Of a stretch of DNA of 64,000 nt, positions 35,515 to 52,106 are shown piece after piece; the first letter of the stretch is position 1; each line of letters starts with the position of its first letter. Origin of the DNA: Fusibacter sp. A1 (GTDB lineage Bacteria; Bacillota; Clostridia; Peptostreptococcales; Acidaminobacteraceae). The position numbers and the translations under genes were made by a program. The stretch is taken from the NCBI RefSeq assembly GCF_004125825.1, contig NZ_QQWI01000005.1, forward strand, positions 304,414 through 368,413, written 5' to 3'. The notes beneath the pieces are model-generated. The model ran no database searches. It saw nothing but the letters and a program-made list of their open reading frames with translations, and was not told where the DNA came from.

Positions 35515-38500
35515 CTACTTCAGTTTGCTGCTATCAACACTAACTTCAATTCTATCAATCTGATGATTGCGCATGAAAATTCGTTGACTGATTGACTTAT
35601 TAAGCATGTTGGTAGCTTCGAACTCACCTGATGTTCCATCGTTGTAATAGACTGTAATCTTGCGCTCAAGAGCAAACTTGTAAACAACCGGAACCGCACA
35701 GAACGTAAAGGCTAAGGAACCAGGCTCAAGTTGTATTGCCGTTTTTTGCGTCTTGTCACCTTTTGAAGGTAGAGTCCATAGGCTCGCATCTTTAAGAAAC
35801 TCAGACTTAGGAAGTAGTACTGGATCAAAAATAAGACAACCGCTTTTAACCTTGACGCCTAGTTCTCCGAACCGTGCGATGAAATCTTCCTTAACCTGCC
35901 CAGTCATTCCTGGTTGCTGCACTCCTGCAAAACCTGGAGTGTGAGAATAAGGATCTGTTGGGAACGCACCATAGTCTTCCGGCGACTTCTCTAGTCCGAT
36001 TCCCGCTTTTATGTCTTCATAATAATGCATTAGCTCTTTTGTCTCATGACTCATTCCACTCGTTGTGTACGCGTCAAAAAAGTTTTCCTGAGTGATCAAG
36101 GCTAATTTGGAAACCATATGCCAGTAGATGCATCCAAGGCCTTCATACTTGTAAAAAGTGCCCGAACGTCCTGTGAATGCGTGATGGTTGAACAGTCTAG
36201 TAAAGATTTCTCCAACCGCTTCTATATCCGAAACCTCATAATCATTTGATCTTTCAATCGCTTCAACCAACTCATCGCTGTTTCTGAATTGTCCATTAAA
36301 ATGATAGTTTCCATGAATATCTTTTTCAATAAATCTTGTCCGTCCAGCGTCGATTTCGGTTTTAAGTACTACTGAAGACATCACCTCAGCTGCTGGCACG
36401 ATATTCTTTTCTAAAAATTTTGGTAGCTCGCGGTTTGGATAAAGCATATAGCTGTTCTGATCCTCGCGGTAAATACTGCTGCTTCTTAGTGCCTTTAAGA
36501 CGCTTACAGCCTCTTTACTGTCAAGCGCCTTAGAACTGAGCACGGCGACCTGACCTTCTAGCATTTCATATAAATTAGAAACAGAACACGTATCACCGTC
36601 GAAGTGAATCAGGTTGTAAGAGTGATATAGACCATCTTCACGTTTATTCTTATTGATTGAATCCTTTAAGTGATCTGATGAAACCTCAATAAACGCCTTT
36701 AGCGATTCAGTCGGCAATGCTTTTTTTATACCTGTAAAACCATTGTCGTAGATCGAATTTCTATACGTCTGACCGATCTCACCAAGTGACTTGACTACTG
36801 CAAATCGATTCTCGTTTGAAATGTTCTGACCTAGTAACTGCCTATTCTCTTCAAGTACAGTCAAGGTATCGTTAAACATGTCAAGTACTTCTATAGAAAC
36901 TTCAATTTCCTGTTCGGTGATTCCTTCTACAAGATCGCGCATATATGCCAAGAACCGATGTAAGTAACCTAAAGTGACCATAGAGAGCCCATTACCGACA
37001 AGAGCGTTGTTCGCATCATTCCACTCAGGTCGCTGCGTATTCATCCAAATGCCACCTTCCGGTACATAGTTTGAAAATTTAGACAACATTGTTACCAGTA
37101 GCTTTTCCATCAGGTTCACCTTATAAGTCTCATCCCCCTGATATATCAGTTTTCCGTCTGATCCCACTACTTTTGTTTTATCATCAATACGTCTTCCTAG
37201 CTCGTCATCAAAGTCGATGCTGTTCCTTGGGTCTTTGACTAAAGATTTAAAATCTCTTATTCTATATGGCACATTCGCATAGACGAAAACATTTTTATGA
37301 AGAAGCTCTTTTAACTTGCTGGAATCATAATCATTGGAGAGTTCCAAAAGTTTAAGCAAGTAGATGATCTGATGGTCGCCCCAATAACCTATATTGGACC
37401 ATGGATCTTGCGGATCGTGCACCTCCCAATCAATTCCTTCTTTTGTGATTCTGTAAGGATTGTATCCATCCGCCGTCGAAGCATTTAGAAATTTGGCGAT
37501 GATACTTTCAATATACCCAGGGTATGAAATAGACAGCGCTTCCCAGTTTTGAAAAATATCACGCCAGTTTCCTTCAAATTTAAGTTTTTTACTTCCATCA
37601 TCCTTGAATAGATCAATATTGAATTTATTCCACGGACGACTTGGGTCTCCGTGTCTTCTGCTATAGGTAAGCGGTAAGTATTCGTACACCAGTCGTTCAA
37701 AATCTGGGCTGTTAAGTTCTTTTACCAGTGCCAACAACTCATGATACTCAATCGTCTCAGGTAACTGCTTTAAAACGTTAAGATGCATATCATAGACCGA
37801 CTTGTTCCAACCTTCGATGAACTCGTTAAAATCATCTGTATCGATTTTATATTCATCGGCGTAAATACCACCTCTCATGATATTGTAAAGGGTGTTCGAA
37901 AAATGACGGTAGCCCGCCTTCTCATTTGCAGTATGCTGAAAGCCGTCAGCTTCAAATACGAGCCTTCTTAACTTGTTATCACCCTTTAAAACGTCAGCAC
38001 TTAACTCTTGAATTATCATTTGATTCACTTTTAACGAATTTATGAGGCTCTCTACGGATGCGGCACTTTGGTTTAGCTCTGCAACAATCACCCATTCTCT
38101 TTTTTCGTTGCCGCTTAGTTCAAGGGTATCATGAACATAATAGGCGCCTCGTCTCCCTTTGACATCGTACTCCGTTTCAATGGAATTCCCCTTTGTAAAC
38201 ACAGCTAGCTGCTGTTCTGATAAAAGATAAGTCGGATTATCAAAGCCTTTTGACCAAACCGTCGTGGCTTTGAGCGACTCACTTGGTTCAGCCTTATCAG
38301 AAAGGATTGAGCTTAATGTGTATATTCCAAGACCTGTATCCGCATGTAGTTCACATCGTTTGTATCCGTCGACAAGCGTGCTTTTTGTGGTTTGCATCAG
38401 TGTATCTACACCATACGGAAGTATATTTCTAATTCCATCTAAAACCTTGACCTTTATAACTGATTCAGAAAGATTGATAAGTTCAGATGCTTTTACAAAT

Positions 38501-38982
38501 CCGAAAGTGTCGGAACTTTTCCATGTATAGCTAAAGCTCACATTCAAGTCATGATTGATTTCTTCAAAGATGATTTTATTACCTATCGCATTTTTGTAGA
38601 GATTACGCGAAATGACATAGACATCCGCATGTTGAGTAGAAAATGGCTTCCACAAAAACCGTTTCTCTTCTTTTTCGACGATCAAGACGGTATCAGAACC
38701 AGAAGTCTCAATGCTGTCATGTATCTTATCGTCCGTATAATATGGAAACAGCGCTGAATCGGCATTCTTACGTCCGCAAGTCACACCACCCGTGCTTGAT
38801 ATATACATCCAGTGGTCTACATCGCTGACTACAGACATAAAAAAGGGATCCATCTGATTAAAATTCTCAATCTTGAAGAAAGTCTCATCGGATCTTCTTA
38901 TCGTTTCAAGCGAAATCGATTTCGTAAATGGGTTTAAAAGATTGCTGCCAAAATACAAATCTTGTTCATTGCTCATTTTCAT
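35515..38982 (-). CDS. Large cytoplasmic GH94-like glycoside phosphorylase family protein (possibly beta-1,2-oligoglucan phosphorylase-like)
   Basis: 1155 aa, no signal peptide. RPEWNDANNAL resembles the GH94 catalytic-acid motif (G)DWND. Lies in a locus with GH1, ROK kinase, LacI and HAD phosphatase. Confidence 0.5.
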   Translation of the reverse strand: MKMSNEQDLYFGSNLLNPFTKSISLETIRRSDETFFKIENFNQMDPFFMSVVSDVDHWMYISSTGGVTCGRKNADSALFPYYTDDKIHDSIETSGSDTVLIVEKEEKRFLWKPFSTQHADVYVISRNLYKNAIGNKIIFEEINHDLNVSFSYTWKSSDTFGFVKASELINLSESVIKVKVLDGIRNILPYGVDTLMQTTKSTLVDGYKRCELHADTGLGIYTLSSILSDKAEPSESLKATTVWSKGFDNPTYLLSEQQLAVFTKGNSIETEYDVKGRRGAYYVHDTLELSGNEKREWVIVAELNQSAASVESLINSLKVNQMIIQELSADVLKGDNKLRRLVFEADGFQHTANEKAGYRHFSNTLYNIMRGGIYADEYKIDTDDFNEFIEGWNKSVYDMHLNVLKQLPETIEYHELLALVKELNSPDFERLVYEYLPLTYSRRHGDPSRPWNKFNIDLFKDDGSKKLKFEGNWRDIFQNWEALSISYPGYIESIIAKFLNASTADGYNPYRITKEGIDWEVHDPQDPWSNIGYWGDHQIIYLLKLLELSNDYDSSKLKELLHKNVFVYANVPYRIRDFKSLVKDPRNSIDFDDELGRRIDDKTKVVGSDGKLIYQGDETYKVNLMEKLLVTMLSKFSNYVPEGGIWMNTQRPEWNDANNALVGNGLSMVTLGYLHRFLAYMRDLVEGITEQEIEVSIEVLDMFNDTLTVLEENRQLLGQNISNENRFAVVKSLGEIGQTYRNSIYDNGFTGIKKALPTESLKAFIEVSSDHLKDSINKNKREDGLYHSYNLIHFDGDTCSVSNLYEMLEGQVAVLSSKALDSKEAVSVLKALRSSSIYREDQNSYMLYPNRELPKFLEKNIVPAAEVMSSVVLKTEIDAGRTRFIEKDIHGNYHFNGQFRNSDELVEAIERSNDYEVSDIEAVGEIFTRLFNHHAFTGRSGTFYKYEGLGCIYWHMVSKLALITQENFFDAYTTSGMSHETKELMHYYEDIKAGIGLEKSPEDYGAFPTDPYSHTPGFAGVQQPGMTGQVKEDFIARFGELGVKVKSGCLIFDPVLLPKSEFLKDASLWTLPSKGDKTQKTAIQLEPGSLAFTFCAVPVVYKFALERKITVYYNDGTSGEFEATNMLNKSISQRIFMRNHQIDRIEVSVDSSKLK

Positions 38983-40123: not shown

Positions 40124-40474
40124 ATGAAATTCAAATATGTTTCGATCGTCTTGATCATCCTCCTTATTGGATTGATGGTTTCCTTAGATTATGCAGATCA
40201 ATACAAGCGTAGACAAATGACTGTAAAAATAGAAGGTCTTGTTGTTGAAGTGATGGAAAAAGAAGCAGCACTCATGGACAGCTCCCTTAACCTACTCAAT
40301 AAGACAAGTGAAAAACTTGAAGAAGAAATTGCAGACCTTAACTCAAAAATCAACAAGCTATCAAAGGAAATTGAAGTTTTCAAAGCACGTGAACTTCGGG
40401 CGTTTACAAGCAAAGCCATGAGTAATTTTTCTGAACTGATCAAAGATATCAAACACATGATTGGTGGTAGATAA
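40124..40474 (+). CDS. Hypothetical membrane-anchored coiled-coil protein
   Basis: N-terminal TM, heptad-rich remainder. GGAGGTG RBS. Confidence 0.4.
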   Translation: MKFKYVSIVLIILLIGLMVSLDYADQYKRRQMTVKIEGLVVEVMEKEAALMDSSLNLLNKTSEKLEEEIADLNSKINKLSKEIEVFKARELRAFTSKAMSNFSELIKDIKHMIGGR

Positions 40475-40569: not shown

Positions 40570-40856
40570 CTATGCCGCTTTCGGATCTGAACCGAAGGTA
40601 TTCCCACCAAGCGTGCCTTCTGTAACCATTAAGATGAAGAACCAGATTTGTCCGATAAGTGGTATCCATGAAATGAGAATCCACCAAGCCGACTTGTTGA
40701 TATCGTGTAATCTTCTGAACGTCAATGCAAAACTTGGAATAACAACAATCAACGCATATAGATAATACAACGCTGCGAAGTTGAAATACCACTAATTTTT
40801 CTATATTTTTTTTTCATATCTTGCAAACTCATAGTGGTCTTCCAGTATGAACTTAT
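40570..40856 (-). pseudogene. DUF805-family membrane protein, N-terminus frameshifted and overlapping the GNAT gene
   Basis: C-terminal 70 aa (RRLHDINKSAWWILISWIPLIGQIWFFIL...GSDP) is a typical DUF805. The upstream N-terminal region sits in another frame as KYRKISGISTSQ, corresponding to KYANFSGRASRSE. Confidence 0.4.
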
Positions 40857-41283
40857 CATAGAGTTCAAAACCGTTGTGTTCATATATGCTTCTAAGAAAG
40901 ACGTTTCCCCACGCTGTATCAAGACGCAACTTATCCACTTTTCGTTTTTTGCATTCATCCACGGCATAATTGATCAGATGTCCGGTTAAGCCTTGACCTG
41001 AAAAACTTCTTCTCACGCTCATATGGTGTAGATAACCTGCATCATTTTTATCAAATTCCGGCCAAAACTGATGATCTTCCCACTGCATGATCATCGCAGC
41101 TGCATCTTCGCCATCGACCGTGATCAAGTAAAACTCATCTTCAGAATAATAGTTCAATAAATTTTCACGATTCAACTCTTGTTCGTTCCATATATTTCTG
41201 CCGATATTTTTTCCCCAGTGAGCGACTTCTTTCATGATTGCGATCGATCGGTCTACTTCACCAACATGTAGTTCTATTGTCAT
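40801..41283 (-). CDS. GNAT-family N-acetyltransferase (YuaI-like by position)
   Basis: Acetyl-CoA motif A (RSFSGQGLTGHLINYAV). Confidence 0.8.
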   Translation of the reverse strand: MTIELHVGEVDRSIAIMKEVAHWGKNIGRNIWNEQELNRENLLNYYSEDEFYLITVDGEDAAAMIMQWEDHQFWPEFDKNDAGYLHHMSVRRSFSGQGLTGHLINYAVDECKKRKVDKLRLDTAWGNVFLRSIYEHNGFELYDKFILEDHYEFARYEKKI

Positions 41284-41397
41284 AGGTACCCCTCCTTAAC
41301 TGTCTTATCCACTACAACGAAGTATTTCCCTATGTTATATGTATACCTTGCTCGTGCTCTTTTAATCATTACCCTCACTAGTCAATTAGAGGAATAA

Positions 41398-41434
41398 GCA
41401 AAAGCGACGTCACTTTTTATGAGACGCCGCTTTC
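41398..41434 (-). terminator. Terminator after the giant ATPase gene
   Basis: AAGCGACGTC...GACGCCGCTT hairpin plus a U-run on the minus strand. Confidence 0.45.
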
Positions 41435-41449
41435 ATAACCTTTTACTTT

Positions 41450-44400
41450 TTAACTTTCATTCACAGCAACTTCGAATACGTCTTTGATCTTACATAAGCT
41501 ATCTCGAAGATCGCTCAGTACAACTACCGCTTGACCCATTTTATCATCACTTCCAGCCAATTTACTCTTTTGGTAGACTTGCTTGATCTCTGAATATCTG
41601 GCTGATTCATGTTCATTCATATGGCCTGTGATTTCTTTCCATTTCAGAAGGTTGGATTCAGCTCCAGTAGTCAGTGTTTGGCAATCATTTTCATAGCTTG
41701 CTATGATTTGTTCTGTCAACTCAGTATCATTCATCACAGATACGACGCGTTGAGCGATCTTGTTCATGTTTCTGTAAGACCCTTGAAGCTTAAACGGCGG
41801 CTCATTTCTGTATTCGTCAGACTGAGCTGCAGAATGGATATACTCCATATTGACTCTTAAAACAATGTCTCTGACATGACTTAACTTGGTAATCACTTGA
41901 GTGTACTCATTAAGTTCATCGGCCGTATAACTACTTTCCAATGTGATCGACTCCCTATCGACGCCGTTTGCCATCTGCACAAGACCGTATAAGTCAGACT
42001 GGCTTCGACTTGAAAGCTTTGATAAGACAGGGTTAGACGTCAAGCTGTTCTCAATGTAACTAAGCTTGAAGGCTTCCTCATTCTCACGTAGCATGTCCCC
42101 TAGGTTATAAACATCAGCCCTATTGGCAAGCATATCCGGTATTTTAAACTTGGCGCCACTTTCAGTATAAGGATTACCGGCCATGACAACCGCTATTTTC
42201 TTACCTCTCAAATCGTATGTCTGACCGACTCCATTGTAGACACCTTCAATCTTACGCTGCCCGTCGCAAAGGGAGATAAATTTTTGCAAGAACTCAGGGT
42301 CGCAGTGTTGAATATCATCAAGATACAACATCACATTGTTCCCCATTTTAAGCGCTAGATTCAACTTTCTCAGTTCTTCCTTGGCACTCGAATGTGAAGC
42401 CTTGTCAGGATCAAGCGAAGTGATTTCGTTTCCAAGGGAAGGACCATTGATCTTTACAAGAATTATGCCTAATCTGCTGGCGATATATTCCATCAGTGTC
42501 GTCTTACCATAACCAGGCGGCGATACTAAAAGTAGTAATCCCATAAGATCCGTTCGCTTATCATCACCCACTACACCCATTTGCTTAGCAAGATTCTCTC
42601 CTACTAAGGGTAGATACACCTTGTCGATCAGTCTATTTCTGACAAACGATGTCAGCACATTGGGTTTAAAGTCGTCAAGACGAAGTACCTCTTTGAAGTT
42701 TTTGATCAACTCACTTTTAAGTGCGTTGAACTTCAGATAATCATCTACCACTTCTTCGCTGAATAAACGCATTTTTGACATGAACTTTGTATAGCTAAGT
42801 TCGTAAGTTCCATCTGCGATTACGCCGTGCGAGCCTACAAGACCTTCAATAACCGTTTTAGTCGGTACTTGTATGACACCGCTCATGTTCACATCTTCTT
42901 CAAGGAGCAGAACGACCACTTCGTTCAATATGCCTGGCCAATCCTCAGCCTCAATATCCATAGGTGTCTTAAGGCTAGCCGTCTGCTCGTTCCAGTATGC
43001 CAAGACCCATTCCTTAACTAGGAAGAATTGTCCTTCCAGATCGGCTTTACTTGCCTTTAAAGACGCTTCAAAGCTTTCCAGCGCATGATTATCTCTAATA
43101 AACGCTTTAAATCCATCATAGACTTGTTTTGCTTCTAGACTTATCACAAAGGATGTCCCTTGCATTAACTCCTTGCACAAGTATTCCGATGAGGCTTCGA
43201 TACTCACCTTGTCATAAAAACCAAGGGTGTCAAACGCCTTTTCCAGGTTTTCTACAACTAAGGGAAGATAGTTATCCAGACTTGGCGCTGATTTGAAAAA
43301 TGTGCCTACTTTAGTCAAGTGATTCAACCGCGTACTTAACAACGTCTTCGTCTGCTCATCTACAAGACGACTCCAGAATAACCTCGCCATTGATCTTACA
43401 TCGCTTTGATAAGTCAACAGGTTGATATGGTGATGAAGATGAAGTAGCGCGCTTAATATCTTTGTCGCATCCTCATCATGCACCCCTTTTGTATACCCTT
43501 CCTGATACCTTGTCTCCATAAACGTCCTGACACGGTCTAAAAGTTGTGAATCCGACATATCGTATAACGTCTGTAAACTTTCAATTTGTAGATTCCTTGA
43601 TGCTTCAAAAGCAGTATATGCCAGATACTCTCCCCTATAGACATCAGCATTTTCAGAAACGAGTGTCTGTTCAAATACATGCTGATACCCGCTCAATTCA
43701 CGGTGGACCACCCTATCCCAAAAATCAGTTCCTGTGATGTGGTAGTAAAGCTGATTATCCTTTTGAACAATGGATAGGTCAATCGCCTTTCTGTTCACAG
43801 AAAAATGATGGTTGCCAAATTTGATGACATCCTGTCCATTCAGGTAGAGGTCTTGCTTGTCTTTCAACTGACGTATGGCATTTTCTTTGAGTGATTTGAG
43901 CTTGGCACTTACTTCATCCGCTTTGACGCTGTCTCCAAGTGACCTTAGTTCAGAAATGATATCTCTGACTTTTTCGGCCATGATATCAGATGCAAGATAA
44001 CCGTTGATCATTTCAATCGTATCAAGGCCCATCAAACGATTTTGAATACCACCGATGATACGCTGTGAAGAATCGAAAAGTGCGACCAACCGCTTATTAA
44101 GCTTATCTAGTAGCGTCTGCTTTCTCGATTCGAATGCGCTGTAGATCTCTTCTCTTTTTTCATCAAGCTTTATAAGATACTCTTCAAACTCAGAAAACTT
44201 ACCTTCAAGCTCCTGAAGCTGTACCATCACCTTATTCAGGTAATTGTCACACTTGTCTTCTGTATCAGCTATTTCAAGATAGTTCAAAACAGCCTGACCA
44301 AGCAGCTTCATTTGAGCGTTAAACTGAATCGTCATCTCGGTTTTTGTGAAGGTTTCGATTCTGACTTTCAGTTTGGCTTTCGCATTATTCATCAAGGAGA

Positions 44401-46336
44401 AGAGAGCAGAAATCTTTTCGATAAGTTCTGTTGTCACTGTCGGGTCTTCGATTTTAAAATTGCTTACTATTTCCATCAACAACTCTAAATCGGTGGACGT
44501 CTTGTCCATTTTTACAGCAAGTTCATTTCCCTCTAGCGACTTTTCGACCGATTCGATCGAACTATGCAACTCATCTACAACCATCTCATACGGCTTCAGG
44601 CCGTCTGGGCTTACGATGAACGCGACACATTTTTCAGAAAATGCGTCATTTTTTTCTTTGACGCGATCCTCTAATTTCTGAACCACGTCAAGGTCTGTAT
44701 ACATCAGATCTCTCAACGAGACTATTTCACCGCGTATGTTTCTGATTTCGCCAAGTACATCGACGTATTCATTGATGTTCTCAAAGGTTCCATATTCAAT
44801 CTTTTTAAGCAGCTCCTCCGTTGTCTTTCCAACTAGTTCGATTTGCTTCTTTGCTACTTCCTTCATTCGAATGACTTTTTCGAATTCTCCAATTGCAAAA
44901 GTGGATGTCTCTTTGATCTCCTTAAGCACCTGAGCAAGATTGAAAGCCTCATCCTTATCCACCCAAAAGTAGGAATCCAAAATGTTTTGAGTTTCCTTTA
45001 CAATATCAAGGTACACGCTTTGATAGCTGTCCCCCTTTTGTACAAGTTTTCCGACACCTCTGCAGGCCGCTATACAGTCAACGACATCCTTATTGCCTAT
45101 CTTGTAGAGTACCGAATCCCTATTCCCCTGAGCAACATGATTCTTGCCGACATAAGGTGTCTGCCATACTTGAAGTGAATGGTTTTTTCTGGGTTCATTC
45201 TCATGTCTGAATACGATCATCTCACCACTATTAAAATGTGAATAGCCACTACAGACGATAGGCATTTCTATTGTCTGCTCAATCATATTATACGAGTACA
45301 TCAGATAGGTACCGCTATCCATATTATAAAAGATATACTGATAGTCCTCGCCGTTTGTAGAACTGATAATCTGATCAAACACCGCATTTTCTAGGGGCAC
45401 GTCAAAGAGCTTATATTCCCCACTTCTCAAGTAATACCCTTGAGGAAAGATCAAGCCATGTCCTCCTGGCAAAAGCTTGCACGTATGTTCCATTGAATCA
45501 ACTCGAACCACATTCTTCAACTTGTTGTTGAAGACAAAGTAACGGTAGGCTTTTTCCTTATAGGGAAGAATCTTAAGCAGGATCAGCTGATCCAAGTCCA
45601 CATAGTAGATCTCGGCATCGTCAAGGTTTTGGTCCTTATCCTCAACAACCTCAGAATAGATACCTTTTCCCGTTTCGGTATTGTCCTCAACCTTAATCGT
45701 AAGGTCTCCACCTATAGTTTCGACAAATACCTTATCCAGAATGGAAACATGGGGGTGGATACCTGTTCTTTGCTGGTCTCTTGTCGCCCTCTGAAAGTCG
45801 AAATCATTGCCTAGGTTGAACTTTACTTCGTGCTCGCTTCTGTTATCGACATAAATCAAACGACGACCTTCGATCAGCCACTTGAACACTTTAATATCCG
45901 TCGCAGCTTTTCCGGTCTGAAAGACCATGTAAAAGTAAGGTTCAGAGATTGTGAACTTGGCAAAGAAGGTGTTCTTGTAGTACTGATACAGATCATCAAA
46001 ATCCTTTTTGAAAAGGTCATCGTTGATCAGTTCGAGGGATTCCTTTATGAATCCCTCTTCACCATACTTGTAAATTGAGAAAACATCCTCAAGTTCAACC
46101 TTTTGCTTCAAGCCGATATGAACGTTGTATCCAAAAAGGAAGCAATCGTCCACAGGTGCCATATCACGAGGGATGCAGTTGTTCTCTGTAAGAATCCTCT
46201 CACTGGCAAGTAGTTTTGTATCAACGGACCCAAAAACATCTTTTCTAGTAGCATTCAATTTCTCCGCTCTTGTTTTTAAGTCGACACCTTGTTTTTCCAG
46301 ACGACTCTTAATTACCTCATAAGTCCCTGAATCCAT
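41450..46336 (-). CDS. Giant (≈1630 aa) uncharacterised AAA_5-type ATPase
   Basis: Start at the ATG 1 nt after the flotillin stop, with a TTGGAG RBS. N-terminal ~450 aa beta-rich, ~750 aa helical/coiled-coil, then Walker A SPPGYGKTT, Walker B VMLYLDDIQH and sensor VVMAGNPY near residues 1250-1420. Function unknown, although the ORF itself is near-certain. Confidence 0.5.
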   Translation of the reverse strand: MDSGTYEVIKSRLEKQGVDLKTRAEKLNATRKDVFGSVDTKLLASERILTENNCIPRDMAPVDDCFLFGYNVHIGLKQKVELEDVFSIYKYGEEGFIKESLELINDDLFKKDFDDLYQYYKNTFFAKFTISEPYFYMVFQTGKAATDIKVFKWLIEGRRLIYVDNRSEHEVKFNLGNDFDFQRATRDQQRTGIHPHVSILDKVFVETIGGDLTIKVEDNTETGKGIYSEVVEDKDQNLDDAEIYYVDLDQLILLKILPYKEKAYRYFVFNNKLKNVVRVDSMEHTCKLLPGGHGLIFPQGYYLRSGEYKLFDVPLENAVFDQIISSTNGEDYQYIFYNMDSGTYLMYSYNMIEQTIEMPIVCSGYSHFNSGEMIVFRHENEPRKNHSLQVWQTPYVGKNHVAQGNRDSVLYKIGNKDVVDCIAACRGVGKLVQKGDSYQSVYLDIVKETQNILDSYFWVDKDEAFNLAQVLKEIKETSTFAIGEFEKVIRMKEVAKKQIELVGKTTEELLKKIEYGTFENINEYVDVLGEIRNIRGEIVSLRDLMYTDLDVVQKLEDRVKEKNDAFSEKCVAFIVSPDGLKPYEMVVDELHSSIESVEKSLEGNELAVKMDKTSTDLELLMEIVSNFKIEDPTVTTELIEKISALFSLMNNAKAKLKVRIETFTKTEMTIQFNAQMKLLGQAVLNYLEIADTEDKCDNYLNKVMVQLQELEGKFSEFEEYLIKLDEKREEIYSAFESRKQTLLDKLNKRLVALFDSSQRIIGGIQNRLMGLDTIEMINGYLASDIMAEKVRDIISELRSLGDSVKADEVSAKLKSLKENAIRQLKDKQDLYLNGQDVIKFGNHHFSVNRKAIDLSIVQKDNQLYYHITGTDFWDRVVHRELSGYQHVFEQTLVSENADVYRGEYLAYTAFEASRNLQIESLQTLYDMSDSQLLDRVRTFMETRYQEGYTKGVHDEDATKILSALLHLHHHINLLTYQSDVRSMARLFWSRLVDEQTKTLLSTRLNHLTKVGTFFKSAPSLDNYLPLVVENLEKAFDTLGFYDKVSIEASSEYLCKELMQGTSFVISLEAKQVYDGFKAFIRDNHALESFEASLKASKADLEGQFFLVKEWVLAYWNEQTASLKTPMDIEAEDWPGILNEVVVLLLEEDVNMSGVIQVPTKTVIEGLVGSHGVIADGTYELSYTKFMSKMRLFSEEVVDDYLKFNALKSELIKNFKEVLRLDDFKPNVLTSFVRNRLIDKVYLPLVGENLAKQMGVVGDDKRTDLMGLLLLVSPPGYGKTTLMEYIASRLGIILVKINGPSLGNEITSLDPDKASHSSAKEELRKLNLALKMGNNVMLYLDDIQHCDPEFLQKFISLCDGQRKIEGVYNGVGQTYDLRGKKIAVVMAGNPYTESGAKFKIPDMLANRADVYNLGDMLRENEEAFKLSYIENSLTSNPVLSKLSSRSQSDLYGLVQMANGVDRESITLESSYTADELNEYTQVITKLSHVRDIVLRVNMEYIHSAAQSDEYRNEPPFKLQGSYRNMNKIAQRVVSVMNDTELTEQIIASYENDCQTLTTGAESNLLKWKEITGHMNEHESARYSEIKQVYQKSKLAGSDDKMGQAVVVLSDLRDSLCKIKDVFEVAVNES

Positions 46337-46337
46337 A

Positions 46338-48362
46338 TTATGCTCCAATTACATTTTCAATTAGATTGGCTGGTAGATTTGCAACACCCGCCTTGTTTAC
46401 AGTATCAAGTAGCTTAGTCAACATCGCATGGTCGTTTCCTTCTGCAGTCTTCATCATTTTTCCTATAGCACCCGAAATGGTGATGTTCATCAGGTCTTGA
46501 GAAGATAAGTTGAATCTTCCTACCATCGTTTTAAGCTGCTGCTGGAAGTAGTCCGCGTCTCCTGTGATGAGGGTCTCTTTGATATCCTTTAGCACTTCAC
46601 TGTTGTTTACAACACGGTCAACCGCCTTACCTTGCGCGATCGAACCGATAATTTTGTCAAAGAACATCGTTTCTCCACCGACAATATCGATCTTAGCTGA
46701 TTTAAGCGCTTCTCTGATAACAGACGCTTGAGCATCTGCAATATCCTTTTGAATGGTGATTTGAGCAAGTTCGATCTGTTTTTCCTTATCAAGCTTGAGT
46801 TTGAACTCTTCATGATCTCTGCCTACAGCATCAAGTAATTTCATGCTATTGGCCTTTTCCTTGATACCTTCAGCTTCTGAAAGGTACATTCTCTTAAGGT
46901 TTGCAGCTTCGACAGTACCGTCTTTCTCTTTTACTTCTACTTTGGCGGTTTCGCCTTTGGCTTCTGCAAGTGCTTTCGCTTCAATCACTTTCGATGCGGC
47001 AATACCTTCGACAGAACCTTCCAGCACTCTGGCATCAACAATCACCTTGATCGCTTCCGCTTCTTTATGAGCGGCTTTCAGATTTGCATCTGCGTCGATA
47101 ATTGTCTTTTCGGCTTCTTTTTCAGCAGCCATCTTGGCGGCTTCCGCACCTTTAACAACAAGAATTTGCTTTGTTTCCGCCTCTTCTTCTGCTTTTCTGA
47201 GCGCTACATTTTTTGTACGGTTTGCATCCGCAAGCGCACGCGTGTCTTTGATTTTTTCTTCTTCCACCACGGTATCTTTTTCGACAGTCACTCTTTCTCT
47301 AATTACCGTCTGTATATTCTTCTTCTCAACTTCTACTAGCTTTTCCTTATCGATGATAGCAAGCTCGACAAGCTTTTCCTTTTCAGTTCTCTCAAGCAGT
47401 CTTTTTCTTTCTACACGTTCAGTTTCGATGGCTTCTGTGCTTTCCTTGGACTTTGCCGCAATGATGATCTGTCTTTGCTTGTTCTCCTCGGCTACACCAA
47501 TCTCTTCTTCTGTCTTCACTCTGGCAAGCTCAGACTTATAGCGTTCTTCTTGAGCGACCTTTTCAGCTTCGGCGATTTCACGTGAATTGATGATCGAAAT
47601 CTCTCTAAGCTGTTTGGCTTCGGCTTCGGCGTTTTGCTTTTCAAGTTCTAAAATAGCTTCTCTTGCCGATACGTCTTGTCGCTTGATTGTCTTTTCGCGT
47701 TCTCTTTCAATCTCGTTGGCCAATATTCTTTGAGTTGAAGTCAGTTCTGTGATCTTCTTGATCCCCTCAGAATCCAAAATGTTGTCAGGATTCAACAAGC
47801 GAATGTCGGTTTGCTCCAGATAATCGATCGCGGCATCATCCAACACATAACCGTTTAAGTCCGTGCCGATGATCTGCAGGATTTCACTCTTAAAAGTCTC
47901 ACGGTCCGTATATAACTGAACAAAATCAAACTTTTTGCCTACAGTCTTAAGCGCTTCAGAGAATTTTGCATCAAAGAAGGCCATTAGGGTTTCCGGATCG
48001 GATGCTTTTTGACAACCCAGCAGCTGTGCGACTTTTAAAACGTCATCTGTCGTCTGATTGACACGAACGAAGAATGCGACACGGATATCCGCCCTTAAGT
48101 TGTCTTTACAGATCAAGCCGTCCTTGCCTTCTCTAGCGATTTCGACACGTTTGATCGAAATATCCATCTCCTCTTTGCGGTGGATGATGGGTACTACCAT
48201 GATGCCGCCAAAGCAGACAACCTGATTGCCGATACCGTTTCTAATGATTACCTTCGACTGCTCCACCTTGTGATAGAAACTGGCAAATAAGGCCAGTAGT
48301 CCAACCACAATGACGATTGATGCTCCTACCGTGACAAGGGTTCCTTGTAATAAAACATTCAT
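46338..48362 (-). CDS. floT: Flotillin-family (SPFH/band-7, FloT/YqiK-like) protein
   Basis: N-terminal TM + SPFH domain, then a long EA/K-rich coiled-coil. Start at MNVLLQG with GGAGGAA RBS, not the longer ORF start at 48377. Confidence 0.85.
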   Translation of the reverse strand: MNVLLQGTLVTVGASIVIVVGLLALFASFYHKVEQSKVIIRNGIGNQVVCFGGIMVVPIIHRKEEMDISIKRVEIAREGKDGLICKDNLRADIRVAFFVRVNQTTDDVLKVAQLLGCQKASDPETLMAFFDAKFSEALKTVGKKFDFVQLYTDRETFKSEILQIIGTDLNGYVLDDAAIDYLEQTDIRLLNPDNILDSEGIKKITELTSTQRILANEIEREREKTIKRQDVSAREAILELEKQNAEAEAKQLREISIINSREIAEAEKVAQEERYKSELARVKTEEEIGVAEENKQRQIIIAAKSKESTEAIETERVERKRLLERTEKEKLVELAIIDKEKLVEVEKKNIQTVIRERVTVEKDTVVEEEKIKDTRALADANRTKNVALRKAEEEAETKQILVVKGAEAAKMAAEKEAEKTIIDADANLKAAHKEAEAIKVIVDARVLEGSVEGIAASKVIEAKALAEAKGETAKVEVKEKDGTVEAANLKRMYLSEAEGIKEKANSMKLLDAVGRDHEEFKLKLDKEKQIELAQITIQKDIADAQASVIREALKSAKIDIVGGETMFFDKIIGSIAQGKAVDRVVNNSEVLKDIKETLITGDADYFQQQLKTMVGRFNLSSQDLMNITISGAIGKMMKTAEGNDHAMLTKLLDTVNKAGVANLPANLIENVIGA

Positions 48363-48380
48363 ATAGTATTCCTCCATAAG

Positions 48381-49082
48381 TTAAATAGTGTTGCCATCGT
48401 TCATCAGTGGTGTGGTGATAAAGTACACATCGTCCACCTTATCCTTGCTAAATACAAATACGGTCTCACCTTTTTTATAAACAAGATGTTTGTCGGCTGT
48501 GGTGACATTAATGACAATCGATACTCCGTCCTGCATGATCTCTGCCTGTCCGAGCCGTCCATATTCCACATCGCTTTTCAAAGTGCATCTTTTGTAAAGC
48601 ACCCTATGGGCAATGTCTTCCTCATTTTTCCTTTCAAAAAAAAGCTTTCTTATCGGAATAAGCTCAAGTTTCGTTATGTAAAGGCTCAAAAAAAATGCCG
48701 GTATCAAAAGCACCGCGCTGATCAGACCGCCCGCTTGAATCGGAAGGACATACAAGAGCATGCTTGATATCCAGAAGTTCAGAAAAATCATACTGAGTAC
48801 CAGGGCGAATGGGATATCACCGCTGTTAACAAGCACCGCGATACCGCTAAGCGGTCCTGACGCATCAGCACCTTCCACATCGAGATCGACATCAAACAAA
48901 TCAAAATCCAGAAAGCCTGTGATAGCCACCAACCAATATAGCTGCATCAAAATCAGCAGTGCGGTAGGTATGACATTTATTCCTGTAAAAGCAAATCTTA
49001 TTAATTCCGTAACAATCACCTCCATCGTACAATCATCGTAAGAACAGGTAACGACTAGGCCTAGAGTATCAGGCTTTAGCAT
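48381..49082 (-). CDS. NfeD-like (YuaF/YqiJ-type) membrane protein
   Basis: Multi-TM N-terminus, C-terminal OB-like soluble domain. Immediately upstream of flotillin as in yuaF-floT and yqiJ-yqiK. Confidence 0.6.
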   Translation of the reverse strand: MLKPDTLGLVVTCSYDDCTMEVIVTELIRFAFTGINVIPTALLILMQLYWLVAITGFLDFDLFDVDLDVEGADASGPLSGIAVLVNSGDIPFALVLSMIFLNFWISSMLLYVLPIQAGGLISAVLLIPAFFLSLYITKLELIPIRKLFFERKNEEDIAHRVLYKRCTLKSDVEYGRLGQAEIMQDGVSIVINVTTADKHLVYKKGETVFVFSKDKVDDVYFITTPLMNDGNTI

Positions 49083-49196: not shown

Positions 49197-49227
49197 AGAA
49201 AAAACAGACTACTTTACTAGTCTGTTC
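49197..49227 (-). terminator. Terminator separating the upstream gene from the nfeD-floT operon
   Basis: AACAGACTAC-TTT-ACTAGTCTGTT plus a U-run on the minus strand. Confidence 0.55.
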
Positions 49228-49295
49228 CTTGCTGTACATGGTTATTCATGATTATCGTCTAGACAAGCCCTTAGCAACCCAAGTCACAACTATCG

Positions 49296-50243
49296 TCATA
49301 GACTTTCAAAATCGGTTTCTATGATCCTTTGGTATTCCTTTTTATCGTATCGCTTTAAAACCTTGAGCGCCCTAAGTGTATTGAACCTGCCTGCCCTTGA
49401 ATCTTCAAGCCTAAAGTGCAGTTCTCCCCCATATTGAGAGCCTTTTGGCATAAAGCCTTTTCGCATGTTCTTTTTGATCAGATCAAGCCCCTCTTTCATG
49501 CGTTCATCATAATGCCTCTTCACCGATGCGAAATATTCGAGCGCGCGTAGATAGTCGTACTTCCATCTTGGCGGGTAATGTGCCCTCAGAAAATCCTTCT
49601 TGATGACTTCTCCAGTACTTACCGTATGGAATAGCCTTCTTTCAAGCAGGTATTCCTCGCCTTCGTATGATTTTTCCTGCATTTCCTCCGACCTGTATCC
49701 GTCACCCCATGTTCCATAGTCTCTAAAGGCCTCAAGTACTGTCAAGGTCGTATGGATGGATCCCCTTGTGGAAAGGTGCTTCTTATAATTCCACTCGCAG
49801 TTCCAACCCCCATCCTCCATCTGGTGATCTAAGAGTTCATCGACCATTTCGTGAGTCCGTACCTCAGTGAATCTTCCATAAGCTGCCAGACTCAGCACCA
49901 TAGCAACCACACAAAGATCAGGCCGCTTCCACATGGACTTGTAGTCTTGTGAACGCCACAACTGATCCACTAGCTTCACCATCGCCTTTTGATAATAGGG
50001 GTGCTGAAAATCGATTTCCATATACTTCAGTTCCCGCATCGTATAGTGGGTTGAGATCCATTTGGGGCTGTATATGCCCTTTCCCCATAATCCCGAGTCA
50101 TCGTCAAAAAGATCGATGTATTTCTTGATGTAACCATCTTCTGTAGAGGGAAGTTCCACCTCTAGCAAATAGGTAGAAGTCAGTCTACGTATCACCGGAT
50201 CGCCTTGCATCAACCAATCAATCACTTTCATAGGAGCCTCCAT
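49296..50243 (-). CDS. Hypothetical protein (possible alpha/alpha-toroid, QxxDGGW-like repeats)
   Basis: HQMEDGGWNCEWN and DSGLWGKG are reminiscent of prenyltransferase/terpene-cyclase repeats. Weak evidence. Confidence 0.35.
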   Translation of the reverse strand: MEAPMKVIDWLMQGDPVIRRLTSTYLLEVELPSTEDGYIKKYIDLFDDDSGLWGKGIYSPKWISTHYTMRELKYMEIDFQHPYYQKAMVKLVDQLWRSQDYKSMWKRPDLCVVAMVLSLAAYGRFTEVRTHEMVDELLDHQMEDGGWNCEWNYKKHLSTRGSIHTTLTVLEAFRDYGTWGDGYRSEEMQEKSYEGEEYLLERRLFHTVSTGEVIKKDFLRAHYPPRWKYDYLRALEYFASVKRHYDERMKEGLDLIKKNMRKGFMPKGSQYGGELHFRLEDSRAGRFNTLRALKVLKRYDKKEYQRIIETDFESL

Positions 50244-50321: not shown

Positions 50322-50356
50322 AAAACCAGGCTGCAGTTTAGCAGCCTGATTTTTTC
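50322..50356. terminator. Bidirectional terminator
   Basis: CCAGGCTGC-AGTTTA-GCAGCCTG flanked by A/T runs. Confidence 0.5.
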
Positions 50357-52106
50357 AGATTACTTGCATTTGATCATTTAGTCCAGATAAATACGTCTTC
50401 CACATCTTACTGAAGTGCCTATCATTCGCATGAAGCTCATCAAGCGTGCCTGATTCAACGATTTGCCCTTGATCCATTACGATAATCAGATCAAACATTT
50501 CAAGTAGGTGCAGTTGATGAATCGGCGTGATGATCGTACGATCCTTGAACTCATTGAGAATCTGACTGAAGATCATTTTTTCATTCAACGCATCGACACT
50601 GCTGCTGATCTCGTCAAGCAAGAGCATTGATTTATGCCTGGCAAAGAACAAGGCTCTTGCAAGTGCTAAGCGTTGTTTTTAACCACCAGACAAATTGACG
50701 CCTTTCTCCCTGATATCGGTATCAAGTCCCTTTGGGAATCCTTTCAACACTTCTGAAAATCTTGATATGACGAGTATTTTTTCCATATACTTCTCATCGT
50801 AGTCCATACCGAATGTGATATTATACCGAATTGTATTTTCAAAAATTTCGATATCCTGAGGCGCCAGCAGACTCATTTGATTGATGCAGTGAAAGTCATT
50901 GATTTTGATGCCGTCAATGATAAGGTCTCCATTACTTGGAGTATGAAACCCTGCAAGCAAATGAATCAGCGTGCTTTTTCCAGATCCGCTACTTCCGATT
51001 ATCGCCACTTTACTTCCAGTACGGAGATCCAGGTTGATGTTGCGAAGCGTACTCTCCTGATTATCATAGCTGAAGTGAAGATTCCTATTTGCAATGTGCT
51101 CCCATGACTCTACTTCTACTGAAACGCTCTTAGCAGTTAATTCGTCGGAAGTTGTGACAATCTGCGAAACTGATTGTAGTGAAGTTTTCCAATCCATCGT
51201 ATCGTAGAAGGTATTTGTAATGTCAAAAAATGATGTGCTCATGGTTTTAAAGTAATTGACAATGGCGATCAGCGATCCAATGATGATCACTCCACCCGCT
51301 TCGCTAGCCGACCACAAGAAAAACAAAATGAGAACAAGTTCTGTTATGAAAGTCCCGGATGCGCTTATGAAGCAGCGCGGTTGGTTTATTTTGAATTCCC
51401 GCATTCTTTCGTGAACATAATGATTGAACTTGTGATTCAGAACCTCATTGGTCTCCTCTTTTAAATGCAGGTTGATCACAGTACGAATGTTGACGATAAA
51501 ATCGAACAACTTAGCAGTATAAGCATGAGTCTCTTCGTTGATACTGTGTAGTATCGGTTGAATAAGCAAATTCATTTTGGTAACTACAACTAAGTTGACC
51601 AGAGTCAAACCGATACATATCATCGAATACTTCCACGAGTAGTTGATGAGTATGAACACCGGTCCGACCGATAATAAAAGATTTCCAAGCATTTCGTGCT
51701 GCATGAACCCATAATCCCTAAGTGAAAAGCTGGCAGTATTGATTCGATTGACAAGCTCTCCAGAATGATTGTTGGTATGCCATTGTATTGGCAAGGAATA
51801 CACTCTACCATACATGTCATCTACAAAGTTCTTTTGCATCGTATATGCCACGGTTAATTCAAAATATCTTGCAGTATGATGAAAAACTTGAAAAGCCAGA
51901 AATCCTACCAGATACATGGACAGCCAAAATAGCGTTGGTCGAATATTTCCAATTCCATTTACTTGCAGCAAGTTGATCGCTTTACCAAATGAATAGGGCT
52001 GAAAAAGAACCCCTGCAAAAGACAAGCTGTGTAAAAAGTATAAAAGAACAATCTTCCAACGTTCTTTTTCCGCATAAATCCATGCTGTTTTAAAAAGATA
52101 TAACAT
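50355..52106 (-). pseudogene. Fused TMD-NBD ABC exporter interrupted by an in-frame TAA in the LSGGQ signature
   Basis: Walker A GSSGSGKST and signature LSGG, then TAA (50679-50681) where Gln is expected. Downstream in-frame KQRLALARALF...LLLDEISSSVD (Walker B). Confidence 0.6.

Follow-up and report, generated by a model that had tools for sequence, protein, structure and literature searches.

What is a gene for a 1628-residue ATPase doing directly behind a flotillin gene in Fusibacter sp. A1, and does it belong to a unit of its own or to a flotillin operon of a familiar kind? Three minus-strand genes lie tightly packed on the chromosome of this bacterium within the window (the whole 64-kb stretch of DNA analysed), with a GNAT gene beyond them. 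A first-pass annotation had taken the giant gene for an addition to a canonical Firmicute yuaF–floT–yuaI operon, in an architecture that matched no described flotillin partner. The genes and signals concerned are the following.

48381–49082, minus strand: NfeD-like gene, 233 aa as called
46338–48377, minus strand: flotillin-like gene, 679 aa
41450–46336, minus strand: giant ATPase gene, 1628 aa counted from its ATG (the mechanical ORF begins at TTG 46348)
49199–49230, minus strand: terminator-like hairpin with T-run, 3′ of the upstream 315-aa gene (terminator scan and sequence)
41390–41441, minus strand: terminator-like hairpin with U-tract, right after the ATPase stop, 12-bp stem, dG −19.2 kcal/mol (ViennaRNA)
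40801–41283: GNAT gene with its own AAGGAGG

The junctions read TAA-ctt-ATG between the NfeD-like and flotillin-like genes (a 3-nt gap) and TAA-t-ATG between the flotillin-like and ATPase genes (a 1-nt gap), confirming the co-directional, translationally packed arrangement described initially. The ATPase ATG is preceded, 6 nt upstream, by a GGAG located within the 3′ end of the flotillin-like gene. Two start sites may differ from those called: the flotillin-like start could be ATG 48362, which lies 8 nt after a GGAGG and would widen the first gap to 18 nt, and the small NfeD-like protein may start at ATG 49025 rather than at 49082, as judged from homologue alignment. The ATPase and GNAT genes are 166 nt apart, and this spacer includes the downstream hairpin and U-tract, which our consensus terminator scan missed because the loop exceeds 8 nt. 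We take the terminator-like hairpins at either end to set the operon limits, and the three genes between them form a self-contained operon.

Gene order was compared across 80 related loci from at least eight phyla. The ATPase gene is immediately preceded by a flotillin-like gene on the same strand in 69 of the 80 and, since 8 of the 11 exceptions have less than 1.6 kb of upstream sequence, in 69 of the 72 informative loci, so that linkage between flotillin and giant protein is clearly non-random. An NfeD-like gene in turn precedes the flotillin-like one in 61 of the 62 loci with room for it. The same triad order recurs in annotated records from Pseudomonas, Streptomyces and Deinococcus (Gammaproteobacteria, Actinomycetota and Deinococcota), whose flotillin-like proteins and ATPases are respectively 40–42% and 37–40% identical to those of the window, and the pairing of a private flotillin with a giant AAA+ protein spans at least eleven phyla. 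All-against-all ORF clustering of the 80 loci yielded no universal fourth gene, and in 16 loci other genes separate flotillin from ATPase, these being mutually unrelated. We read the YqiJ-like/flotillin-like/ATPase triad itself as the conserved unit. The GNAT gene does lie downstream, as had been pointed out, but it stands behind the terminator and is conserved in none of the 80 loci, and it is not an operon member here; nor is yuaF–floT–yuaI the canonical Firmicute arrangement, as yuaI has been placed in the operon 'only in B. subtilis' (Hinderhofer et al., 2009; PMC2636767). That an unrelated large gene landed by chance in a yuaF–floT–yuaI-type operon of this strain, as the succession of ATPase and GNAT genes might suggest, is therefore extremely improbable: the intervening terminator, the B. 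subtilis-specific yuaI linkage and above all the 80-locus census rule it out, and the ATPase gene cannot be regarded as an extra. Identities to the window flotillin and ATPase, at about 47% and 48% respectively in distant phyla and 82% and 73% in close relatives, correlate across the 80 loci (r = 0.96). Because r falls to 0.14 within the distant loci, this co-divergence seems to be mostly clade structure, and we set it aside as evidence of co-evolution beyond that.

For the two proteins encoded upstream of the ATPase, single-sequence searches gave no Pfam, NCBIfam or PADLOC match even at E <= 10, and their identification therefore required relatives to be aligned and the profiles compared with those of E. 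coli YqiJ and YqiK. The NfeD-like protein has hydrophobic segments, a D-rich acidic loop and a beta-rich C-terminal domain. Its alignment found nothing in a PDB profile search and matched YqiJ with 96% probability (hhalign, profile–profile; E 4e-9), and among 22 relatives Pfam YqiJ_N matches 18 and the Pfam NfeD C-terminal family two. We assign it, on these profile matches, as a YqiJ/YuaF-type NfeD-like membrane protein. The flotillin-like protein comprises an N-terminal hydrophobic anchor (aa 6–40), an SPFH domain, a coiled coil rich in Glu and Ala, and a conserved C-terminal region. Its alignment matches YqiK in hhalign with 99.95% probability (E 1e-38, 417 columns) over aa 15–447 only, which leaves the conserved C-terminal region outside, and Pfam Band_7 matches two of 23 relatives. 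A PDB sequence search with the protein gave no match, and the alignment gave a weak PDB profile match to QmcA (E 0.04); likeness to SPFH cages (flotillin, HflK/C, QmcA) rests on this match together with the YqiK homology. The protein is best described as a YqiK-type flotillin-like SPFH protein. With the proteins encoded just upstream of the ATPase in the 69 loci it shares 46–83% identity, and its identity to ATPase-linked relatives overall (40–83%) exceeds that to E. coli YqiK (30%), which marks it as a dedicated paralogue tied to the ATPase.

An NfeD homologue right upstream of an SPFH2 gene, the hallmark of SPFH2–NfeD2 operons (Hinderhofer et al., 2009), is thus present here across the 3-nt gap, in the same order as in E. 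coli yqiJ–yqiK and B. subtilis yuaF–floT. Unlike those operons, which contain no ATPase, that of the window includes the giant gene, and its flotillin-like protein is longer than YqiK (679 versus 553 aa).

The giant ATPase has a 100% match to one Fusibacter protein and more than 4000 relatives, and Pfam DUF3686 (E 5.5e-175), DUF7902 and AAA match it. No hydrophobic or transmembrane segment was found in it, and it is predicted to be soluble. From N- to C-terminus its parts are:

45161–46330, minus strand: N-terminal helix (aa 3–35) and beta-propeller (aa 41–392), DUF3686 core, from AlphaFold2
43847–45112, minus strand: very long helices (aa 409–830), single ones of up to 58 residues, from the secondary structure of the model
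42578–43828, minus strand: small beta domain and all-helical middle domain (aa 837–1253)
41969–42577, minus strand: AAA+ module (aa 1254–1456)
41453–41968, minus strand: C-terminal helical domain (aa 1457–1628), from the model

In the AlphaFold2 model the propeller part has a mean pLDDT of 85 and about 25 strands, and Foldseek matched it (E 1e-6 to 1e-4) to the propellers of WD40 proteins, prolyl-oligopeptidase and the clathrin terminal domain. DUF3686 is found essentially only at the N-terminus of proteins of 1600–2036 aa. The long-helix region, which includes DUF7902 at aa 579–660, is predicted to form a coiled-coil or helical-bundle arm. The AAA+ module carries a Walker A motif (G1275-YGKTT), Walker B (YLD1340-D1341), sensor 1 (N1388), a candidate Arg finger (R1406) and a pre-sensor-1 beta-hairpin (aa 1362–1375), and its fold is closest to MoxR, dynein and midasin, which places it in the MoxR/AAA_5 clade; similarity at the sequence level is marginal (AAA_5, 23.1 bits). 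The family members compared show no variation in Walker A, sensor 1 or the Arg finger, and in every one of them Walker B is Asp-Asp, not Asp-Glu, which may point to slow or switch-like hydrolysis rather than to a processive motor. Relatives in Planctomycetota and Desulfobacterales reach 1750–1950 aa through extensions of 100–300 aa past the C-terminal helical domain, one of them (P0123) with ankyrin repeats. The model thus presents the 1628-aa protein as a beta-propeller followed by long helices, a helical domain and a MoxR/dynein-type AAA+ module; together, hhalign, Pfam and AlphaFold2/Foldseek bear out the NfeD-like, flotillin-like and giant dynein/MoxR-type AAA+ identities proposed at the outset. 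Compared with MoxR-type chaperones (CbbQ, NorQ) and with dynein and midasin, the window protein has a single AAA+ module in 1628 aa. MoxR-type ATPases are normally paired with a VWA partner; the 80 loci share no conserved VWA gene, and VWA is absent from the 25 most frequent Pfam families among 144 flanking ORFs.

These features bear on two readings of what the ATPase acts on. It goes by the name 'DNA repair ATPase' in NCBI and UniRef, the Pfam text for DUF3686 reads 'ATPase involved in DNA repair' and the P-loop region gives a weak RuvB-like match, all of which would suit an enzyme that works on DNA like RuvB or RecN. The RuvB likeness amounts, however, to 20 bits against a cut-off of 299 for the TIGR00635 ruvB equivalog, over 45 residues; neither Pfam nor Foldseek revealed a DNA-binding or nuclease domain; and the gene is nearly always beside two membrane-protein genes and often beside pspA. 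Our literature search returned no paper naming DUF3686 or PF12458 and none joining flotillin with 'DNA repair ATPase'. We consider a role in DNA repair very unlikely, and the database name, for which we see no visible support, may mislead users of the annotation. A coiled-coil match to 'ATPase involved in DNA repair' entries of the RecN/SMC type is the probable source from which the name spread. Alternatively, a coat-like or dynein/midasin-like mechanoenzyme might bud or pinch membrane at flotillin domains, with no tie to stress repair. Foldseek matches of the propeller and long helical region to clathrin heavy chain, nucleoporin and Elp1 point that way, as does the abundance of the family in Planctomycetota, Verrucomicrobiota and Bacteroidota. 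Yet the TM-scores are low (0.13–0.16) and the matches are generic propellers, very long single helices, not an alpha-solenoid, make up the helical part, and the family occurs just as much in Clostridia, Streptomyces and Deinococcus; a coat or vesicle machine is in our judgement unlikely.

The architecture is not without precedent, contrary to what was initially supposed. Ravi et al. (2024; mSystems 9:e00847-23, PMC11237479) describe operons that combine a CesT/Tir–PspA dyad, YqiJ/YuaF, band-7/flotillin and a "β-propeller–coiled-coil–AAA+" protein, as in the neighbourhood of ANH61663.1 of Dokdonia donghaensis, and also mention abbreviated operons without PspA. Their account, which is purely computational, ties the class to the PspA membrane-stress response by comparative genomics and proposes a 'chaperone-like role in assembly of membrane-linked complexes', with no further mechanism. 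The window agrees with this class in its three core proteins, in gene order and in domain architecture, the NfeD-like gene supplying the YqiJ/YuaF-type multi-TM neighbour, but lacks the CesT/Tir–PspA dyad of the full form. On this comparison we assign the window operon to the abbreviated form of this already published PspA-associated band-7/flotillin–AAA+ class.

Consistent with that account, the extended form was found among the related loci: CesT/Tir–PspA lies directly upstream in about 12 Bacteroidota loci, and extended loci also carry a divergent HTH + protease regulator and a PLD gene, as in Ravi et al. (2024). On plasmid pQBR103, YjfI–PspA heads a co-directional 11-gene cluster with the triad at its end. 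The association with PspA in these two lineages could reflect few evolutionary events. In the 64-kb window itself, tblastn (E <= 1) found no homologue of PspA, CesT, PLD or HTH-S24 beyond noise, and any PspA link in this strain would therefore act in trans, or not at all. A 116-aa ORF at 40124–40474 was considered as a local PspA and rejected, as it scores only 21.7 bits with PspA_IM30 (cut-off 33.9), lies on the opposite strand, has half the expected length and is unmatched by real PspA neighbours in tblastn. A precedent for recruitment of PspA by an SPFH protein is reported from B. subtilis (PMC8581546; PMC9239133).

The first-pass annotation had further suggested abortive-infection-type defence. 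In such a system the flotillin scaffold would sense perturbation of the envelope by phage and the ATPase would trigger membrane damage or cell death. Several features of the loci would fit: a patchy spread across phyla despite well-conserved proteins, which suggests horizontal transfer, occurrence on megaplasmids, a PLD/HKD hydrolase gene next to some loci and, in several Bacteroidota loci, variable genes inserted between those for the flotillin and the ATPase. Against this, PADLOC-DB 2.0 gave P-loop noise alone for the ATPase (IetA best, E 5.6e-4 over 29 residues; BrxF, TRIP13 and mad8 weaker) and zero matches for the other four window proteins scanned, and no relatives occur among 2.9 million viral contigs. 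In the 144 flanking ORFs the top Pfam families comprise PspA, CesT/Tir, response regulators and sigma factors, with none for restriction, toxins or integrases among them, and the surroundings of the operon in the window are ordinary chromosome. Moreover, the core has no effector domain, and an arms-race gene would not usually keep 46–50% identity between phyla across 1600 residues. Anti-phage defence is accordingly a quite improbable function for the triad, and the suggestion found no support in these data.

The reading that we favour, with moderate confidence, is that the triad is an abbreviated PspA-associated module in which the ATPase serves as an ATP-driven remodeller of the flotillin scaffold in membrane-stress maintenance; the early proposal of an ATP-driven machine anchored by flotillin is in line with what has been predicted in print (PMC11237479). 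The flotillin-like protein and its NfeD-type partner would build an oligomeric SPFH scaffold at the cytoplasmic face of the membrane, onto which the soluble giant ATPase would dock through its N-terminal propeller and long helical arm. As an AAA+ oligomer, it would then spend ATP to assemble, remodel or dismantle the scaffold or the clients gathered there, which may include PspA polymers where PspA is encoded, and the overall role of the triad would be the upkeep or repair of stressed membrane.

The best-understood pairing of an SPFH scaffold with an AAA+ machine at a membrane is HflK/C–FtsH, a cage and a protease. The pairing proposed for the window is similar in kind to this complex, covered by a Cell Rep 2026 paper (PMC13220708). 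It differs in that FtsH is a membrane-anchored AAA+ protease of the classical clade, whereas the window ATPase is predicted to be soluble, lacks a protease domain and has a MoxR/dynein-type module; moreover, HflK/C face the periplasm, whereas the flotillin scaffold is proposed to lie on the cytoplasmic face. Coupling of a membrane-remodelling polymer to an AAA+ ATPase is likewise seen in ESCRT-III/Vps4 of archaea and eukaryotes and in PspA/PspF, and pspA genes adjoin the triad in two phyla. PspF, however, is an NtrC-type transcription activator, unlike the window ATPase, and a 2025 review (PMC7619361) states that a Vps4-like ATPase appears to be absent in bacteria and calls the roles of band-7 partners undetermined. 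A more speculative version of the remodelling model, which we hold possible but doubtful, would make the giant ATPase a bacterial functional counterpart of Vps4, recruited by its private flotillin paralogue, that disassembles or recycles flotillin cages and/or ESCRT-III-like PspA polymers in a slow, load-dependent cycle tuned by the Asp-Asp Walker B. It is not a Vps4 homologue, for it lacks an MIT domain and falls in another AAA+ clade.

Roles in membrane organisation and repair are ascribed to bacterial flotillins and PspA, and the triad is a candidate for the missing energy-consuming step in the handling of their assemblies. Carriers workable in the laboratory include Pseudomonas fluorescens SBW25 with pQBR103, Proteus mirabilis, Clostridium paraputrificum and Streptomyces.

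In this chromosomal stretch from a Fusibacter species (Clostridia), the three genes of interest lie on the minus strand, within the following limits:

48381–49082, minus, YqiJ/NfeD-like gene (ORF, 233 aa)
46338–48377, minus, flotillin-like gene (ORF, 679 aa)
41450–46336, minus, giant ATPase gene (ORF, 1628 aa counted from ATG)
49230–49199, minus, hairpin and T-run past the upstream 315-aa gene
3′ of the stop codon of the giant gene, minus, 12-bp hairpin (dG −19.2 kcal/mol) and U-tract

The tight packing noticed in the first-pass annotation is confirmed by the junctions, which read TAA-ctt-ATG between the first and second genes and TAA-t-ATG between the second and third, with a GGAG located 6 nt 5′ of the ATPase start codon, within the 3′ end of the flotillin-like gene. 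The flotillin-like gene may alternatively start at the ATG at 48362, which has GGAGG in front of it, and alignment with homologues suggests that the NfeD-like gene may start at 49025. Given the hairpins at both ends, the three genes appear to form a single transcription unit. With an AAGGAGG of its own, the GNAT gene at 40801–41283 looks like a separate unit.

Neither of the two smaller proteins from the window matched anything in Pfam, NCBIfam or PADLOC, and a sequence search of the PDB with the flotillin-like protein found nothing. Because these direct searches gave no match, we resorted to alignments built from the proteins encoded next to the giant gene elsewhere. In hhalign, the 679-aa family matched E. 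coli YqiK, a flotillin-family protein, with 99.95% probability (E 1e-38, 417 columns), and the 233-aa family matched E. coli YqiJ with 96% (E 4e-9). Pfam Band_7 was passed by 2 of 23 members of the former family; among 22 members of the latter, 18 carry YqiJ_N and two the NfeD C-terminal domain. Hydrophobic segments number several in the small protein and one, N-terminal, in the flotillin-like protein. The earlier ‘NfeD-flotillin’ call is thus borne out by the profile matches and, as judged from sequence comparison, the first two genes are a YqiJ/YqiK-type (SPFH2/NfeD2) pair as in Hinderhofer et al. (2009; PMC2636767).

To census gene neighbourhoods, one genome per species was scanned for two peptides conserved in the giant protein, and a confirmed relative was found encoded in at least 597 stretches (597 of 600 among the matches listed). 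The best 80 of these at least 597 loci, in which the giant protein is 46–73% identical over its full length, come from Bacillota, Bacteroidota, Planctomycetota, Verrucomicrobiota, Desulfobacterota, Fibrobacterota, Calditrichota and Hydrogenedentota. A full-length flotillin-like homologue (46–83% identity) lies directly upstream of the ATPase gene in 69 of the best 80, and the gene is upstream and on the same strand in all 67 loci where both were placed by ORF clustering. Eight of the 11 remaining loci have less than 1.6 kb of upstream sequence, so that linkage amounts to 69 of 72 informative loci (best 80 of at least 597), which refutes an incidental adjacency of the two genes. Among the best 80, 62 loci have room for the NfeD-like gene and 61 of these contain it; clustering of all ORFs in the best 80 revealed no further universal gene. 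Moreover, the same gene order occurs in three annotated records from three more phyla, plasmids of P. fluorescens SBW25 (pQBR103), Streptomyces and Deinococcus grandis, whose giant and flotillin-like proteins are 37–40% and 40–42% identical, respectively, to those in the window. E. coli YqiK differs in that no such ATPase adjoins it, and it is only 30% identical to the flotillin-like protein.

Census and clustering therefore identify the triad itself as the conserved unit, rather than a canonical flotillin operon with an inserted extra gene, as first proposed: the ATPase is inherited together with a private flotillin paralogue and the NfeD-type partner of the latter. None of the best 80 related loci has the GNAT, TauE or upstream 315-aa gene seen in the window. 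With a terminator-like hairpin after the ATPase stop, and with yuaI part of the operon only in B. subtilis (PMC2636767), the proposed link to the yuaI-like GNAT gene has to be abandoned. Three loci, L054, L070 and L014, have no flotillin-like gene within 10, 10 and 2.7 kb upstream of the ATPase gene, respectively, and in L054 small unrelated ORFs lie immediately 5′ of it. In 16 other loci, mostly from Bacteroidota (L020, L022, L023, L034, L035, L038, L043, L047, L055, L058, L060, L063, L064, L066, L067 and L074), 0.6–3 kb of unrelated, non-conserved ORFs separate the flotillin-like and ATPase genes. Small lipoprotein-like proteins are among their products, as is an ABC-transporter-like pair in L043; this junction seems tolerant of insertions.

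The giant protein, which has 100% identity to an ‘unclassified Fusibacter’ protein at NCBI, matches Pfam DUF3686 (aa 19–457, E 5.5e-175) and DUF7902 (aa 579–660), with weak AAA, AAA_22 and AAA_5 matches at ~aa 1266–1391. No hydrophobic segment was found in it, and the protein is soluble. Two AlphaFold2 models, with a 43-sequence alignment across several phyla as input (mean pLDDT 85.0 for aa 1–870 and 84.6 for aa 839–1628), predict the following order:

protein start, N-terminal helix
aa 41–392, beta-propeller (model and Foldseek)
after the propeller, very long helices of ~420 residues
after the long helices, a small beta domain and an all-helical domain, with no fold match assigned
window 41969–42577, minus, AAA+ module
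past the AAA+ module, C-terminal helical domain

The propeller matched WD40, prolyl-oligopeptidase and clathrin terminal-domain propellers in Foldseek (E 1e-6 to 1e-4). The protein is thus predicted to combine an N-terminal domain of protein-binding type and a long arm with a MoxR/dynein-type AAA+ module that looks intact; its Walker A (GYGKTT, K1278), sensor-1 N1388 and R1406 show no variation from Clostridia to Planctomycetota. Whereas the usual Walker B motif is Asp-Glu, that of this family is Asp-Asp (YLDDIQH, D1340-D1341), without exception in the aligned members, which span several phyla. This motif and the lack of a VWA partner set the ATPase apart from typical MoxR systems and may be signs of a slow, regulated ATPase cycle. 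No feature could be detected that would justify its database name, ‘DNA repair ATPase’, the score with the RuvB model being 20 bits (cut-off 299). A role in DNA repair is very improbable.

DUF3686 is found in 706 cluster representatives (E ≤ 0.001) among 1.84 billion proteins. The listed matches of full-length size (about 1500–2036 aa) have the domain at or near the N-terminus, and the shorter ones (183–1345 aa), of which there are many, are most likely fragments. Many of relatives P0121–P0240 (Planctomycetota, Desulfobacterales and others) reach 1750–1950 aa because of C-terminal extensions; P0123 (Desulfobacterales, 1906 aa) has ankyrin repeats. One match in the eukaryotic set EukProt (P0204, 1711 aa) may be contamination or a true eukaryotic copy.

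In the window, the triad has an ordinary neighbourhood (TauE exporter, HAD hydrolase, radical-SAM protein, LacI regulator, ABC transporter and MatE pump). Among 144 ORFs flanking it elsewhere, the commonest Pfam families are PspA_IM30 (six) and CesT_Tir_1 (five), PLDc_2 and Band_7 recur, and no restriction, toxin or integrase family is prominent. An anti-phage defence role, which the first-pass annotation had suggested, appears quite unlikely, as the ATPase has no relative in a viral contig collection and its PADLOC matches are P-loop noise only. In 11–12 Bacteroidota loci, a divergent HTH+S24-like regulator is followed by CesT/Tir-like, PspA, YqiJ-like, flotillin-like and ATPase genes, and two Planctomycetota loci have a PLD-like gene directly upstream. 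On the megaplasmid pQBR103 (NC_009444.1, 84437–97641; L082/L084), the triad comes last in an 11-gene co-directional cluster with YjfI (CesT/Tir), PspA/IM30, a rhomboid protease and polyamine-type genes (DUF2491, DUF350, DUF1190 and glutathionylspermidine-synthase-like). At least two distant lineages thus combine PspA modules with the triad. In the window, a 116-aa ORF flanked by the TauE and GNAT genes (40124–40474, plus) matched PspA_IM30 below threshold (E 1.7e-4; 21.7 bits, cut-off 33.9), probably coiled-coil noise, since tblastn with the real PspA neighbours of the operon misses it.

Operons joining three components to CesT/Tir-PspA, one of them a 3TM protein with YqiJ/YuaF as prototype, and some including a PLD hydrolase, were described by Ravi, Anantharaman and co-authors (mSystems 2024, PMC11237479; preprint 2020), whose Dokdonia donghaensis example (Table S3) has a gene string identical to one found here. 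Our locus very probably belongs to this class, and so the arrangement is not, as had been claimed, without described precedent. PspA was also reported alongside band-7/FloT and NfeD in Acidobacteriota (Popp et al., 2022). The class was already known computationally and the window adds a member; new here are the quantified linkage, fold-level description, AAA+ clade assignment, invariant Asp-Asp Walker B and terminator-bounded operon limits, with the pQBR103 cluster as an experimental handle.

According to a 2025 review (PMC7619361), a Vps4-like ATPase appears absent from bacteria and the roles of band-7 partners are undetermined. We found no experimental work on the giant ATPase in the literature. 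A membrane coat or vesicle machine is an unlikely reading. Solved SPFH proteins (flotillin, HflK/C and QmcA structures) are membrane-attached oligomeric scaffolds, and the flotillin-like protein with its NfeD-type partner would form another. The giant ATPase could dock on it and spend ATP on building, reshaping or taking apart this scaffold or its clients, PspA polymers among them, in an overall role of membrane-stress maintenance. Taken whole, this scaffold-docked remodeller is an explanation we lean towards slightly. It retains the parts and general idea of the first-pass interpretation, shorn of its extra-gene framing, GNAT link and claim of novelty.

Elsewhere in the window, an ABC transporter gene with transmembrane and ATPase domains (50355–52106, minus) has an in-frame stop at the Gln of LSGGQ (‘LSGG*KQRLALARA’), beyond which the remainder of the ATPase domain can be read without a change of frame. 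Read-through, a sequencing error or decay to a nonsense pseudogene may account for it. The gene directly upstream of the operon, past the terminator (49296–50243, minus), encodes the 315-aa protein, which matched no family beyond a faint similarity to the N-terminal domain of squalene-hopene cyclase (E 0.012). ORFs 35515–38982 (1155 aa) and 53811–55688 (625 aa), both minus, gave no Pfam match at E ≤ 0.001. Finally, at 56021–59732 (plus), the gene for a DUF2339 membrane protein (834 aa) overlaps that for a DUF3999 protein (426 aa), a pairing of two uncharacterised families.
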